Virus genome (UHGV): UHGV-0311442
Length of the DNA: 64,000 bases
Origin: a virus
Direction: 5' to 3' (one strand)
In this document: piece by piece, positions 35,815 to 53,872 of the stretch
How positions within the stretch are numbered: the stretch's first letter is position 1
Layout of the letters: every line of letters starts with the position of its first letter
The notes under the pieces: generated by a model
The model's input: the letters and a program-made list of their open reading frames with translations, nothing else
Databases searched by the model: none
Told to the model about the DNA's origin: nothing
Program-made: the position numbers and the translations under genes

Positions 35815-38109
35815 TTACTTACCAGCAGCAGCTTTGCCTTCGCCAGCAACGTTACCTGCTACACCACCTTCGGTTTGTTTCTGACCGTTCTGTTCAACAG
35901 AAACATTGTAAGCCAGTTTTTCTTCAACCAGTTTGGTGATGCCTTTAACCCAGATCAGACCAGTGATCGGGCAGTGGCAGATGTGCGCGTTACGCGGCTG
36001 TACGGCCAGCTCTTTAGAGGTAGAACCGTTACGCTGAATGTTGATGTTGGTAACCATGATCGGAGACCAGAAGTGGTTACCCCAGTTCAGCACGTTGTAG
36101 GAACCATCGTCCGCAGTCGGAACTTTCAGGAACCATTGCAGACGACGAGTCCAGGAACCGTCAGCTGCGTTGTAGATACGCCAGCGGTCATCGTTGGTGG
36201 TGATCACTTCGTATTCGTAGCGATCGCCCAGCAGACGTTGGTCGCCCTGTACCAGCAGCAGCATAGATGCAGTCGGTTCGTCAGTTGCAATAACAACTTT
36301 CGGCAGAATGTCCGGATCGGCAGTGTACAGACGCAGCGCAGGAATGAAGCGAGATTCCTGGATAGCCTGAGTTACTTGATTACCGATACGCTGTACCAGG
36401 CCCTGACGAGCGTTGATCAGTGCATCTTTGGTATCCAGGGACTGTACAACTTCATCAACGTTGTAGTCAGACTCTTTGAACCACGGAGCAACCCAGTGAC
36501 GGCCCAGACCACGAATGGCCGGTTTGTCCCACGGAGTGATCATGCTTGCAGCAGCGTTACGTACCGCTTCGGTGTAAGACAGCGTCTGAGTAATAGCCAG
36601 CTGTTCGTTACGGATGTTAACTGCGGAAATCAGGTCGTCCAGACGTTCGGTATCGTCGTATTCAACGCCAACCGGAGACTTGGTCAGAATCGGAGAACCG
36701 TATTGCAGTTTGTAGTTTTCTTGTTCCCAGATTGGGTCAAGCAGCAGACCCTGGGTACGACGGTTTTCGTTGGTACGAGTACCATCGAAGCGCCAGCCCA
36801 TCAGTTCAAGTTTCAGACCGTCCAGGATAACTTTGCCGGTACCAGATTTGGTATCAACTTTGTTACCGGTAGCATCGTACAGACCTTCGATTTCCAGTTT
36901 GTGACCAGCGATGTCAACTTTACCACCGAACTGACCGGTAGTGAACAGAGACATGTTGATGGTGATCACATAACGCAGGGTGTAGGAGTTCTGACCCAGC
37001 GCTTGTAGTGCCGGAATAGCTGCACCAGTCCAGTCGGTAGTTTTCGCGTTCAGAGAGAACGCAGTACGACGGAATTGCAGTACCAGCTCACGGCCATCAC
37101 CTTCAGCAGGACGCTGGAAGGTTGCGAACTGCATATCACGAACGTGCAGTTTGATGAACTTACCTGCTTTCGCTTCTTCGGTCGGTTTACGTACGGAAAT
37201 CAGCAGGCTGCCCAGAGCACAACCCGGTGCGATTTCATCAGTTTCGTCGTAACCTTCCTGAACGATACCCGGATGCGCAGACAGCTGGAACAGGTTCAGA
37301 GTGTCTTTAGCAAAGCTCAGGTAGTTAGTCGGGTACGGAGGTACACGGCCCAGGCGAACAGATTCGTTCGGTACCAGTTCTTCGCTTACGAAGTATTCAG
37401 CGTTTTCACCGGTTTCCATTACGTAAGGAACGATGTTGATCGCTTCGTCCTGGAGAACGGTGTGGTCGGTCAGTGCGTTGTGCAGCGGACGACGATGATC
37501 TTCAACAACGTCTTTGCTCAGCAGTGCGTTCATTACACCGCGAGAAACGGTGGTCACTTTGGTACGTACGGTAATACCAACATCGTTAGTGTCAACGGTG
37601 ATGGTCGGGAACAGAGTCTCAGCGAAACGAGACTGAGTTTCCAGAGCACGTACGTTCAGCGTCCAGGTCAGACCCAGGTTTTTGTCGTAGTCTTTGTTGG
37701 TGTAGTATTCCTGAGCGACAACCATACGCTCTTTGCCCCAGTCGCCGTTACCAGCTTGGGAACCAGGAATCGCAACGTCCAGGTTAAAACGGCTATGGAA
37801 TTCTGGTTTAGCGTATTCTTGCGCTACTTTTTCTTGCAGGTCCATACCGTGACCAGCAGCACCCAGAATCATTGCAGAAGCAACTTCCGCAGCGTGGGAC
37901 ATTTTCTTACCGCCAGCAAACGCGTTTGCGTAGTGCTGTGCAGCGTCGTCACGCAGGGTACCAAAAACTTTCGTGTTGCTACGTACAGATTCACCAGCAA
38001 CGATGGTGTTCCACATTTCGCCAGCACTGTTGTTACTAATGACGCTTTGTACCAGCGAGTTACCAGCTTGTACGAGTTTCTCCAGATTAGAGATTCGGGT
38101 ATCTTTCAT
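35815..38109 (-). CDS. Highly expressed structural protein (764 aa); major capsid or tail sheath candidate
   Basis: Strong bias to E. coli-optimal codons (CTG, GGT, CGT, AAC, GAC); own terminator; size fits a jumbo-phage capsid or sheath protein. Confidence 0.75.
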   Translation of the reverse strand: MKDTRISNLEKLVQAGNSLVQSVISNNSAGEMWNTIVAGESVRSNTKVFGTLRDDAAQHYANAFAGGKKMSHAAEVASAMILGAAGHGMDLQEKVAQEYAKPEFHSRFNLDVAIPGSQAGNGDWGKERMVVAQEYYTNKDYDKNLGLTWTLNVRALETQSRFAETLFPTITVDTNDVGITVRTKVTTVSRGVMNALLSKDVVEDHRRPLHNALTDHTVLQDEAINIVPYVMETGENAEYFVSEELVPNESVRLGRVPPYPTNYLSFAKDTLNLFQLSAHPGIVQEGYDETDEIAPGCALGSLLISVRKPTEEAKAGKFIKLHVRDMQFATFQRPAEGDGRELVLQFRRTAFSLNAKTTDWTGAAIPALQALGQNSYTLRYVITINMSLFTTGQFGGKVDIAGHKLEIEGLYDATGNKVDTKSGTGKVILDGLKLELMGWRFDGTRTNENRRTQGLLLDPIWEQENYKLQYGSPILTKSPVGVEYDDTERLDDLISAVNIRNEQLAITQTLSYTEAVRNAAASMITPWDKPAIRGLGRHWVAPWFKESDYNVDEVVQSLDTKDALINARQGLVQRIGNQVTQAIQESRFIPALRLYTADPDILPKVVIATDEPTASMLLLVQGDQRLLGDRYEYEVITTNDDRWRIYNAADGSWTRRLQWFLKVPTADDGSYNVLNWGNHFWSPIMVTNINIQRNGSTSKELAVQPRNAHICHCPITGLIWVKGITKLVEEKLAYNVSVEQNGQKQTEGGVAGNVAGEGKAAAGK

Positions 38110-50572: not shown

Positions 50573-50623
50573 AATGCGAAAAAAAAAGAAAGGGGAGAAC
50601 CACCCCATTACAGGGTGGTTCTC
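50573..50623 (-). terminator. Rho-independent terminator
   Basis: 11-bp stem GAGAACCACCC/GGGTGGTTCTC then a 9-nt T-run. Confidence 0.85.
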
Positions 50624-50641: not shown

Positions 50642-51904
50642 TTATTTAGATTTTTCGTAAGCAGCGATACCTGCGGAGATATAGCCGTTCAGACCGCCAG
50701 CCAGATGTTTCTGAGTAGAGGCAATAACTTTCTCGCCCAGAGACACTGCCTGGTTAATGCTGTTGATGTAACGACGTGCGGTACGTACAGATTCGGTCAG
50801 TTCCGGTTTTTCGTCGATCTTCACGCTGTCGATTTCTTTCAGCAGCTTCTCAATCTGCTGGCTGAATTTCTCGCGAGCCTGTTCGGTCTTACGATATTCC
50901 AGAACGTTCTTCTCAATCTGTTTACCCACTTCGTTGAAGAAGGCATTGGTCTTAGCCAGTTCGCTAACAGACGGAGTTTTAACGTTGGTTTCAGCACGGT
51001 TTTCAGCTTCCACGTAGCTGGAGCTAAAGCCGCCTTCTTCGTCATATTCCATCTTCAGCGCCATGTTACCAAGTTTGAACTTGTTAACATCTTCTTTGGC
51101 CAGAGCAGCGAAGTCTGCTTTCAGTTTCTCAACTTTAGCGCCATCGCCTTTAACGACACTACCAACCAAATCCGTACCGTTGTTCAGGAAGCTCTGAACG
51201 TTACCACTGTAGTAGGTGGAAACGTGGTTCAGGATATTCTTCAGGCGCACCAGATCGTCACCAACGAATTTACCGTCGACAGACAGAGACTTGATGAAGC
51301 CACCAGAGATTTCATCTTTCTTCTGTTTGCCCAGTTTACGAATAGCTTCGTCGTATTTCTTAGAACGAGCCTGGATGGATTTACCCTGGTTGGAGAATTT
51401 CAGCCAACGATCTTTGATCTTACGGCCTTGTTCTTTCAGCCATTCCCAAATACGTTTCAGGAAGGCTTTAATGTCGTCCCACAGGGATTCACGAGCAACC
51501 TGGCGACGGTTACGAGAACCGTAGGATTCGTGAGCAACAGAAGAACGGTGATCGAAGTTCCAACGAGAACGGATAGATTCCTGAGCAACGTCCAGCGCAG
51601 TCGCAGCGTCGTCCGGCATATCTTCTTCGGCGTCCATCGGGTCTTCGCCGTCTTCACCAGCACCCTCGCCGTCAGCAGCGGCCTGAGCTTCGTCCAGAAC
51701 ATCCAGCTGAGCGTCGGTTTCGTCACCGTCTTCTGCCAGCAGTTCAGCGTCAGCGTCCAGGGCTTCGATCGGTTTGGTATCATGCTCGATATCGGCCAGA
51801 GTACCTTCAACAGATTCTGCTGGCAGTTCGATGCCGTCTGGAACTACAGTGGCAGTAGCTTCCATCGATTCACGAGCGGCGCGAGTTTTTGCGAAATTTG
51901 CCAT
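50642..51904 (-). CDS. Abundant acidic virion-type protein, paralog 1 (420 aa); scaffold, internal head or capsid candidate
   Basis: N-terminus MANFAKTRAARESMEA identical to 51981..53252; acidic about 100-aa N-terminal region with several [SAG]-x-E motifs; optimal codon usage; shared C-terminus GLNGY..AGI.AY.KSK. Confidence 0.75.
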   Translation of the reverse strand: MANFAKTRAARESMEATATVVPDGIELPAESVEGTLADIEHDTKPIEALDADAELLAEDGDETDAQLDVLDEAQAAADGEGAGEDGEDPMDAEEDMPDDAATALDVAQESIRSRWNFDHRSSVAHESYGSRNRRQVARESLWDDIKAFLKRIWEWLKEQGRKIKDRWLKFSNQGKSIQARSKKYDEAIRKLGKQKKDEISGGFIKSLSVDGKFVGDDLVRLKNILNHVSTYYSGNVQSFLNNGTDLVGSVVKGDGAKVEKLKADFAALAKEDVNKFKLGNMALKMEYDEEGGFSSSYVEAENRAETNVKTPSVSELAKTNAFFNEVGKQIEKNVLEYRKTEQAREKFSQQIEKLLKEIDSVKIDEKPELTESVRTARRYINSINQAVSLGEKVIASTQKHLAGGLNGYISAGIAAYEKSK

Positions 51905-51922
51905 TTTAAGCTTTTCCTCTAA

Positions 51923-51941
51923 GGGGAACGACGTGTTCCCC
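51923..51941 (-). other. Hairpin between the two paralogs, next to the RBS of paralog 1
   Basis: Stem GGGGAAC/GTTCCCC; no U-tract on the minus strand. Confidence 0.4.
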
Positions 51942-51980
51942 TATTGATTTATTTCAAGAACTGTACGAGCGTAAGTCTAA

Positions 51981-53252
51981 TTATTTAGACTTTTTGTACG
52001 CGCCGATACCAGCACCCAGGTAACCGTTCAGACCGCTAATAACGGTGTTAGCTACGTAGCTAACGGCACGGTTCAGGGTCTGGTAGTTCTTCACAGACTG
52101 ATCAGCGGCTTGACGTGCATTACGCAGTCCTTCCCACTTACTTTCGTCTTTTTCGTTGTTCAGCGCGTTGGACGCTTTTTCAGCAGCCTGTTGCAGTTTC
52201 ACGATTTCAGAATCGTAAGCACGGAAATCTTTCAGTACAGCTTCGAAGCCTTTACCGATCGCTTCCAGAGCAGATGCTGCGCCAGCCATTTCAGAAACAG
52301 ACGGAGTAGCCACTTCTTTATCGTCAGAAGCGTCACCGGTGCTCATGAAAGCAATTGCGGTGAACTTGTGGCCGCCAGCCAGTTCTTTAGTACCAGCCTG
52401 AACGTATGCGTTGCCCGGCAGTGCCAGCAATTTAGACGCATCACCTTTTTCAAAGTTCGGCAGAGAATGCAGTTTAGACGCTGCTTTACCAAACAGTTCA
52501 ACCGGCTGATCGCCACGCATCGCTTTGAATGCGTCATCGTCGCCTTTGGTAACAGCAGTCACAGCTTCGCCAGCTTGTTTTTCCAGTGCGTTGATAGCAC
52601 CTTTCGCTTTACCTGCGGTCACTTCTTTAGCGATGGCAATAGAGCCAGCAGCATCGAATTTACCTTCGATGGACAGTTTGGTGATAAAGCCACCGGAAAC
52701 GTTGTCTTTATCTTGTTTGCCCAGCTTGCGGATCATTTCCTGATATTTCTTCGCACGTTTCTGTGCGGTCTTACCGACGTTGAAATATTTCAGTTTCAGG
52801 TCTTTGATTTTCGCAATCACTTCTTTACAGAACTGAATGAAACGCTCGTAAAGACCTTTCAGGGTTTCTTTCCAACCTTCCTGGGCAGCAACAGTCATGC
52901 CACGGCCACGGCGATAGGATTCGCGAGCCAGTTTAGTACGCTCCAGGTTCCAGCGACGTGCGATGGATTCCTGTGCCACTTCGTGCAGGGCAACCGCTTC
53001 TTCCGGCATTTCTTCACCGTTAGCAACGGCTTCTTCCGCCTGTTCGATAGCGTCTTCAGTACGCTCGGTATCGGCAGCCAGGGTTTCACCGTCGGTTTCC
53101 AGCTGATCGAGCTGACCGTCGATAGATGCTACGTCCGCAAGTTGGACGTCCAGGTTCTCTTCTGCCGGTTCAACGTTGCTGATACCGTCGATTACTTCAT
53201 CGGCCGCTTCCATCGATTCACGAGCGGCGCGAGTTTTTGCGAAATTTGCCAT
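51981..53252 (-). CDS. Abundant acidic virion-type protein, paralog 2 (423 aa)
   Basis: Same N- and C-terminal blocks as 50642..51904; shared KKY.E.IRKLGKQ.KD..SGGFI.KLS..GKF and TPSVSE. Confidence 0.75.
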   Translation of the reverse strand: MANFAKTRAARESMEAADEVIDGISNVEPAEENLDVQLADVASIDGQLDQLETDGETLAADTERTEDAIEQAEEAVANGEEMPEEAVALHEVAQESIARRWNLERTKLARESYRRGRGMTVAAQEGWKETLKGLYERFIQFCKEVIAKIKDLKLKYFNVGKTAQKRAKKYQEMIRKLGKQDKDNVSGGFITKLSIEGKFDAAGSIAIAKEVTAGKAKGAINALEKQAGEAVTAVTKGDDDAFKAMRGDQPVELFGKAASKLHSLPNFEKGDASKLLALPGNAYVQAGTKELAGGHKFTAIAFMSTGDASDDKEVATPSVSEMAGAASALEAIGKGFEAVLKDFRAYDSEIVKLQQAAEKASNALNNEKDESKWEGLRNARQAADQSVKNYQTLNRAVSYVANTVISGLNGYLGAGIGAYKKSK

Positions 53253-53311
53253 TTCGTTTATTTCCTTTGGTTATATAACCCAATTACACGCCCCTAGAAT
53301 GAGGGGCCCCC

Positions 53312-53872
53312 TTAGGGACGTGCGATTTTCAAAAACACTGCTAACGACGAGATCATGTCGGACAACCCGTTCGGGCGCGTCATCCAGCGTGCCAGCAGTT
53401 CATGGTCTGCATAAGATAAAAGACGTTTGCTACACTCAACAGATTGGTGAGCAGAGCCCATATTACGTACAGTACCTCGGCGACCAAACGCAGCAGCTAA
53501 TAGACGCGAGCCTAATGCACCCGTCTGTTCAACATTCTTCGTGTTACGAACATCGTTCATATACGACGACAGCAAAGTCGACCACTGCCCTAACGTCACA
53601 TTACGTCGCTTACCATCCAGCAAGAAATCTACACTTTCGTTATAAAACGTATTAAAGGTAAATCCGACCTGCGGATATTCGTCATATAATACTTGCTGCA
53701 AAGAATCCGCAGCCATCAGACGAAAGTACGGTAAAATAACGGCGGCGGCTTCCAGTGTTTTGTGAATAACCTCGTCATCGTGTGTGTCGATTGGGTTCTT
53801 CGATAAAATCGACATGTAGGATTTAATGCGCTCTACAGCAACATTAAATTCAGGACTATCGTGCTCAAACAT
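53312..53872 (-). CDS. Hypothetical protein (186 aa)
   Basis: GGAGAGG 5 nt upstream. Confidence 0.65.
   Translation of the reverse strand: MFEHDSPEFNVAVERIKSYMSILSKNPIDTHDDEVIHKTLEAAAVILPYFRLMAADSLQQVLYDEYPQVGFTFNTFYNESVDFLLDGKRRNVTLGQWSTLLSSYMNDVRNTKNVEQTGALGSRLLAAAFGRRGTVRNMGSAHQSVECSKRLLSYADHELLARWMTRPNGLSDMISSLAVFLKIARP

Follow-up and report, generated by a model that had tools for sequence, protein, structure and literature searches.

Why do two genes that diverged long ago and lie side by side in a phage genome begin with exactly the same nucleotides? This question is raised by genes A (upstream) and B in a 64,000-nucleotide (nt) stretch of the virus genome UHGV-0311442, hereafter the window (Table 1). 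A and B are tandem paralogs and orthologs of gp53 and gp54 of Salmonella phage SPN3US, its two most abundant internal head (ejection) proteins. Counted from the ATG, the two genes are identical for exactly 47 nt, and their first 16 residues are the same (MANFAKTRAARESMEA); nucleotide 48 differs (GCG vs GCT), both codons specifying Ala16. Beyond the first 16 codons, identity was 48.6% for DNA and 34.1% for protein, and the second-longest identical run in the codon alignment was 13 nt. The initial annotation of this locus had described paralogs diverged in DNA and protein with an identical 5′ end of 46 nt; the divergence and the identity are both real, but the run is 47 nt long, and the 48-nt coordinate spans given for it were off by one. 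No further copy of the 47-nt segment with up to three mismatches was found within the window (0 expected in shuffled sequences). As judged from sequence comparison, the identity goes back to a single non-reciprocal gene conversion from A to B, which was recent and short (41-49 nt). The explanation that best accounts for the locus as a whole, in which we place high confidence, is a gp53/gp54-type pair that underwent a single recent A-to-B conversion of the leader, the leaders of the two proteins being interchangeable.

Origin of the identical gene starts

We compared the locus with close relatives taken from IMG/VR, one ~97% identical to the window (L003) and three ~88% identical (L004, L005, and L006). 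L003 carries the same identical A/B leader pair as the window. In the other three, gene A starts as in the window, and gene B starts with ATGGCGAATTTCTACAAAAACAAAATTGCTCGTGAGTCTATGGAGTC, which encodes MANFYKNKIARESMES. Gene B of the window differs from that of L004, L005, L006, and two further genomes (L045 and L046) at 16 of 47 nt, all within nt 6-46; as for the flanks, no difference is found in the 25 nt upstream, and the next 373 nt differ by 4-8%. The gene A leader was unchanged across all eight clade genomes compared, apart from one synonymous change in L006. The tract therefore measures at least 41 nt (51859-51899, nt 6-46 of the coding sequence) and at most 49 nt (51858-51906, -2 to +47), and the conversion altered five leader residues of B (Y5A, N7T, K8R, I9A, and S16A). 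Gene conversion, which had been offered as one of two options in the initial annotation, is borne out by the relatives that keep the A leader and differ in the B leader.

The direction of the exchange was read from the distribution of the B leaders. In a protein database search, B products with the converted leader formed ~33 clusters (121 contigs), and those with the ancestral leader formed ~20 clusters (106 contigs). MANFYKNKI is taken as the ancestral B leader because all four types of B body carry it, compared with only two for the converted leader, and because every gene A product of the clade has the MANFAKTRA leader. One genome (L043) is of the window type in its left half, 47-nt tract included, and switches to another body type at ~nt 420-640 of gene B. 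The distribution of B leaders therefore indicates one conversion followed by ordinary recombination between phages, as in L043. The comparison thus reveals a discrete patch with defined boundaries, gene A as its donor, a single origin, and natural coexistence with the unconverted allele.

The second option in the initial annotation was a constraint at the nucleotide level, namely that a translation-initiation or messenger RNA (mRNA) element for very high expression of both genes keeps the two starts identical. A and B are among the most codon-biased genes of the window, but in the ~20 clusters with the ancestral leader, that is, in about half of the sampled clade genomes, B differs at 16 of 47 nt behind the same ribosome-binding site (RBS). 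Rare A/T-rich first codons (TTT, CAA, and GCA) occur in both paralogs across genera, yet the two 5′ ends differ from each other by 5-17 nt in other genera. Although the initiation regions are weakly structured, folding predictions give the converted B region slightly more structure (-12.6 kcal/mol, against -8.5 kcal/mol for the ancestral region), and Rfam gave no match. A nucleotide-level element was rejected since folds of the -30 to +50 regions were no better than those of shuffled sequences (z -1.05 to +1.11), no conserved structure was found, and unconverted alleles are common. We regard such a constraint as very improbable.

A tandem arrangement with a short repeat might also be the remnant of a very recent tandem duplication or an assembly artefact. 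However, the comparison of synonymous divergence along the two genes, suggested with the initial annotation, showed that synonymous sites outside the first 16 codons are saturated (proportion of synonymous differences, pS, 0.70), with a nonsynonymous divergence (dN) of ~0.7. This saturated divergence of the bodies, together with distinct orthologs of A and B in five genera, marks the paralogs as ancient and rules out a recent duplication of the whole gene. An artefact is ruled out because separately assembled sequences from different samples (L003, L043, and many NCBI/ENA contigs) have the same tract set in unique flanking DNA. The probability left to either origin is negligible.

The A-to-B conversion resembles interlocus gene conversion in bacterial rRNA operons and tuf genes in that a discrete patch of the acceptor has been overwritten from a donor that stays unchanged, and the phylogeny of this patch conflicts with that of its flanks. 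It differs from these cases in its very short tract and in its substrates, which are ~66% identical in the tract and ~50% identical elsewhere. This low substrate identity suggests microhomology-anchored template switching or T4-type recombination, not classical homologous exchange. In the literature searched, no earlier report of this conversion was found. In this virulent jumbo phage, conversion over a very short tract between tandem paralogs of ancient divergence can be seen cleanly and dated, and both alleles circulate. The identity of the gp53/gp54-type proteins is unaltered by this finding, which is an evolutionary footnote of modest significance.

The conversion also made a 47-nt direct repeat, the copies of which lie 1,348 nt apart. 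If the phage is proficient in recombination, exchange between the repeats would delete or duplicate gene A; neither variant was seen among the loci examined.

Concerted evolution and putative role of the leader

Leaders were compared in 24 genomes representing 13 lineages and at least five genera. Residues 1-15 group by genome, and the sequence past residue 16 groups by paralog type. Identity in the leader (residues 1-15) was 0.88 between A and B within a genome vs 0.66-0.68 between orthologs, and identity in the rest of the protein was 0.27 within a genome vs 0.53-0.63 between orthologs. None of 20,000 label permutations, which ignore phylogeny, attained the observed leader value. Both paralogs have lost Ala2 in Wellingtonvirus and Derbicusvirus, and the window clade has Met14 in both. 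The paralogs of SPN3US, pEa_29, pEa_4, and Caitlin are nucleotide-identical at the codons of the variable residues 4-9, even where the genes otherwise seldom use the codon (in SPN3US, GTA, AGT, and CTC; in other phages, CAA); the codons of the invariant A-R-E-S-x-E in the same phages carry synonymous differences at most positions. The pattern at codons 4-9 fits older and even shorter conversion tracts anchored on conserved flanks. These comparisons show that the leader evolves in concert across at least five genera and suggest that conversions recur. Conserved flanking microhomology (ATGGCAAAYTTY ... GCNCGNGARTC) and a T4-like recombination machinery would make micro-conversions recurrent, and this recurrence would explain the concerted evolution of leaders in other genera.

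The SPN3US pair is similar to A and B in gene order, three-part precursor, and A-X-E sites, with amino-acid identities of ~69% for A and ~80% for B outside its hypervariable centre. Ali et al. reported that SPN3US gp53 and gp54 begin with the same 15 residues (MANFVKSKLARESVE) despite an overall identity of 34%, which they found reminiscent of the capsid targeting sequence (CTS) of T4 (PMC5694885), and cleavage at ARE-12 was confirmed by mass spectrometry (MS; PMC10052503). However, the first 15 codons of the SPN3US genes contain six synonymous differences, with 8 nt differing in the first 48, compared with 47/47 identical nt in the window, and the leaders of the two phages differ at 5 of 15 residues. 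Unlike that of SPN3US, the event in the window is datable, polarisable, and visible as a polymorphism. The A/B protein types, the shared SPN3US leader, and its resemblance to the T4 CTS were already known (PMC5694885, 2017). What is new is the proof, at the level of the nucleotides, of a very short and recent conversion, its direction, its natural polymorphism, and recurrent concerted leader evolution.

The leader peptide, MANFAKTRAARE/S (slash, cleavage site), is a short N-terminal peptide ending at a prohead-protease site. N3, F4, E12, and S13 are among the only 16 positions that are invariant in a 52-member family alignment, and A10 and R11 are nearly invariant; therefore, a short leader ending in A-x-E/S is a fixed feature of the family. 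Removal of the leader is known for SPN3US gp53 (ARE-12), phiKZ gp93 (SLE-13), and phiKZ gp162 (between E17 and R18) (PMC10052503, PMC5694885, PMC11297242). No other open reading frame (ORF) of the window carried the leader in a six-frame regular-expression search, and a degenerate DNA scan of IMG/VR returned solely A/B pairs.

In T4, the CTS of IPI, IPII, IPIII, and Alt is likewise a short N-terminal peptide that ends at a prohead-protease site, is removed in maturation, and is conserved between internal or ejected proteins with diverse bodies (PMC3012670, PMC7411985). In contrast to the CTS, which is common to several otherwise unrelated internal proteins, the leader is restricted to two paralogs. 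It has no sequence similarity to the CTS and is followed by a further propeptide of ~110 residues, and targeting by the leader is putative. About half of the sampled clade genomes now carry the five-residue leader replacement in gene B, indicating that the two leaders are interchangeable, which is compatible with, though no proof of, a shared function in docking or processing. By analogy with the T4 CTS, the leader probably acts as a docking or targeting segment, which would be the first segment to be processed by the protease. The conversion would be tolerated because the leader would do the same job in both proteins. The gp53/gp54-family leader behaves as an exchangeable module, and this exchangeability, with the concerted evolution in at least five genera, supports, without proving, the suggestion that it is a giant-phage counterpart of the T4 CTS.

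It is also possible, though we are doubtful, that the conversion was adaptive, in that both ejection proteins would dock on one prohead-core receptor (perhaps the gp243 ortholog, a scaffold protein, or the protease), and matching leaders would be favoured. The accompanying proposal that conversion is the route by which a change in one leader reaches the other is similarly tentative. gp243 is required in SPN3US for incorporating the gp53/gp54 family (PMC5694885), the same study that likened the leader to the T4 CTS, and concerted evolution is seen in at least six lineages, along with a shared indel. The converted allele is common in nature and the NF...ARES core shows strong conservation, but viable genomes in which the leaders of A and B clearly differ are common too, with differences at 7/16 residues in Asesino, 5/16 in Kwan, and 5/16 in unconverted members of the clade. 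Therefore, leader identity is not obligatory. In its most extended form, the leader would be a portable capsid-targeting tag of SPN3US-like jumbo phages, matched between the two ejection proteins by recurrent micro-conversion, both docking on one co-evolving prohead receptor; we consider this rather unlikely. If it were true, the converted/unconverted polymorphism would be a ready-made experiment, and the tag would be usable to load foreign proteins into giant-phage heads.

Several points weigh against the preferred explanation, a single recent A-to-B conversion between interchangeable leaders. Its polarity rests on parsimony, and an ancestor with identical leaders, followed by import of a foreign B leader by the other genomes, is possible in principle. 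The rare A/T-rich codons shared among codons 2-6 (TTT, CAA, and GCA) could partly reflect common selection at the 5′ end. The leaders of most other genera show 4-6 synonymous differences, and their amino-acid identity could stem in part from parallel selection and not from conversion. The differing leaders of Asesino, Kwan, and the unconverted clade members (5-7 of 15 residues) count in the same direction, and the shared job of the 12-residue leader is one that we infer.

Protein family, precursor architecture, and predicted fold

The Pfam family PF12699 ('phiKZ-like phage internal head proteins') matched both A (1.5e-73, 248.7 bits) and B (3.5e-59, 201.4 bits) far above the cut-off of 27, over profile positions 2-387 of 387, and phrog_2497 ('internal head protein') matched A at 5e-146 and B at 1.9e-120. 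The locus is syntenic with those of SPN3US and Erwinia phage Asesino at ~77% DNA identity, and both phages annotate the pair as internal head proteins. The tandem pair follows the gp50-52 orthologs and precedes a dihydrofolate reductase (DHFR) block in the same order as in SPN3US, Asesino, and at least 20 other genomes, and the neighbouring ORFs of the window match the same conserved block of virion genes. phiKZ gp93, gp162 (PF12699), and gp86 are distant homologs, phiKZ having 5-8 family members compared with two here. No phage record in INPHARED exceeded ~77% DNA identity to the window clade; the source phage is an uncultured SPN3US relative of ~225 kb infecting Enterobacteriaceae. In SPN3US, gp53 and gp54 constitute 'paralog family A', the two most abundant ejection proteins with >600 copies each (PMC7411985, PMC7552025, PMC10052503), and they form a T=1 inner shell in protease-deficient capsids (PMC7411985, PMC7552025).

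Table 1 Features of the A/B locus and related genes in the window. aa, amino acids; ENC, effective number of codons; Fop, frequency of optimal codons; MFE, minimum free energy.
Feature	Position	Strand	Remarks
Gene A (upstream), 423 aa	51981-53252	minus	SPN3US gp53 ortholog; PF12699 internal head / ejection protein
Gene A, leader, codons 1-12		minus	
Gene A, acidic propeptide, codons 13-125	52878-53216	minus	
Gene A, predicted mature part, codons 126-423	51984-52877	minus	
Gene B, 420 aa	50642-51904	minus	SPN3US gp54 ortholog; PF12699
Gene B, leader, codons 1-12		minus	
Gene B, propeptide, codons 13-139	51488-51868	minus	
Gene B, predicted mature part, codons 140-420	50645-51487	minus	
Donor copy of the 47-nt identical segment, gene A leader MANFAKTRAARESMEA	53206-53252	minus	Exact repeat
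Converted tract, gene B	51858-51904	minus	Replaced ancestral ATGGCGAATTTCTACAAAAACAAAATTGCTCGTGAGTCTATGGAGTC
Hypervariable centre of gene B, residues ~216-330	50915-51259	minus	
Invariant AGAGGA Shine-Dalgarno sequence, gene B	51915-51920	minus	
Intergenic stem-loop, 8 bp, 5-nt loop	51922-51942	minus	MFE fold; 1-2 nt upstream of the gene B Shine-Dalgarno sequence
Invariant ~42-nt element, ATCGCACGTCCCTAAGGGGGCCCCT...AGGGGCGTGTA	53285-53326	minus	Overlaps the stop codon of the upstream gene, precedes gene A
Intrinsic-terminator-like hairpin, 13-bp stem and T-run	50595-50623	minus	Ends the A-B transcription unit
Major head protein gene	35815-38109	minus	phrog_3231, E 9e-280; ENC 32.3, Fop 0.84

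According to MS mapping, the SPN3US prohead protease gp245 cleaves after A-X-E, in gp53 at ARE-12, AQE-95, and AQE-125 and in gp54 at AQE-124 and ARE-137 (PMC10052503, Table 2). The gene A product has predicted cleavage sites at the MS-mapped positions of gp53, namely RAARE/S at 12, VAQE/S at 95, and AAQE/GWKETL at 125. In the gene B product, cleavage is predicted at ARE-12, AHE-126, and VARE/SLWDDIK at 139, the last of which corresponds to the maturation-site peptide (E)SLWDDIK of gp54 (PMC10052503). The initial annotation had read the identical start as a possible targeting or propeptide sequence and had noted several [SAG]-x-E motifs, of the type that prohead proteases cut, in an acidic N-terminal part of ~100 residues. 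This agrees with our results, as ARE-12 falls inside the identical stretch, and both the acidity and several A-x-E sites were found. Aspartate and glutamate outnumber lysine and arginine in residues 17-125 by 29 to 9 in A and 34 to 4 in B, and both proteins have a basic start of 16 residues, a strongly acidic part up to ~residue 125, and a mildly basic body. From these sequence features, the precursor is predicted to consist of a basic 12-residue leader ending at A-R-E/S, an acidic propeptide of ~110-125 residues with further A-X-E sites, and a helical-bundle body. By analogy with the SPN3US orthologs, the mature body is predicted to remain in the head and then to be ejected.

Codon bias was extreme in A and B, with ENC of 33.7 (median for the 59 window ORFs, 50.2) and Fop of ~0.8 (median, 0.50). 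The major capsid gene alone ranks with them, and the three genes are clear outliers. Together with the abundance of the SPN3US proteins (PMC7411985), these values uphold the earlier view that codon usage is strongly optimised, as for abundant virion proteins. Codons 2-6 of both paralogs in all genomes include TTT, CAA, GCA, and AAT, which are rare elsewhere in the same genes. Such rare 5′ codons across genera are consistent with general selection for A/T-rich, unstructured starts of highly expressed genes.

Whether the proteins adopt an HK97-type or a helical fold had been left as a choice by the initial annotation. AlphaFold2 with the 52-sequence alignment gave a confident model with a predicted local distance difference test (pLDDT) score of 83.4 and a predicted template modelling (pTM) score of 0.83. 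The model has a leader helix (residues 4-14), a disordered linker (residues 14-28), a long helical propeptide, and a body of four long helices with a small beta unit. A run with the two window sequences only (pLDDT 45) was not used for the fold search. A and B had no match to HK97 or major head families in Pfam or PHROG, and a sequence search of the PDB gave no match. According to the model, the fold is a helical bundle, not HK97, and the capsid protein is encoded by a separate gene.

Flanking elements, gene B variability, and occurrence of the clade

The hairpin noted between the two genes in the first description is real. Thirteen phages have it at the same position, and compensatory double substitutions were seen at 4 of 7 pairs. 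The sequence that follows the stem on the minus (coding) strand is UUAGAGGAAAAG, with no U-tract, and a terminator scan reported the hairpin on the plus strand only; an intrinsic terminator was rejected because of the missing U-tract. The stem-loop may protect the 3′ end of the gene A message or take part in its processing, or it may provide context for the gene B RBS.

The invariant element upstream of gene A is identical in 13 phages of five genera, against differences of 25-35% in the coding DNA around it. The element occurs once in the window, can fold into a ~10-bp stem with an inner GGG/CCC stem, and has no match in Rfam. We regard it as a candidate promoter, processing, or 5′-stabilising element of the highly expressed A-B operon. 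No sigma-70-like sites were found on the coding strand near A and B, a result that is uninformative because SPN3US-like phages use their own RNA polymerases.

In its hypervariable centre, the gene B product shares only ~62% of its residues with relatives that match its propeptide at 98%. A single clade contains at least four body types, the synonymous divergence (dS) is raised (0.5-0.9) with dN/dS of 0.13-0.42, and L043 is a recombinant within gene B. The variability looks like the outcome of allelic exchange affecting the ejected body and recalls the diversity of internal proteins in T-even phages. Propeptide fragments of phiKZ gp93 and gp162 stay as fibres lining the capsid (PMC11297242). 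The propeptide of B may be better conserved than the body because its fragments likewise persist as capsid-lining fibres.

Contigs of the window phage clade (~220-227 kb) were present in many NCBI/ENA assemblies labelled Salmonella enterica, Shigella, or E. coli (P0002, P0057, P0061, P0065, P0073, P0076, and others). The clade was also found in metagenomes, and protein searches yielded >200 contigs. Its presence in isolate assemblies suggests an unrecognised jumbo phage travelling with enterobacterial isolates, either in a carrier state or as contamination. In the GenBank records LR535903-LR535917 (Salmonella phages SPFM5-SPFM20; hits H82-H90 and proteins P0112-P0120), the gp53 region was matched in 9-13 short pieces. 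The predicted proteins of these phages resemble shuffled gene blocks, which probably reflects assembly or consensus errors in the deposited records.

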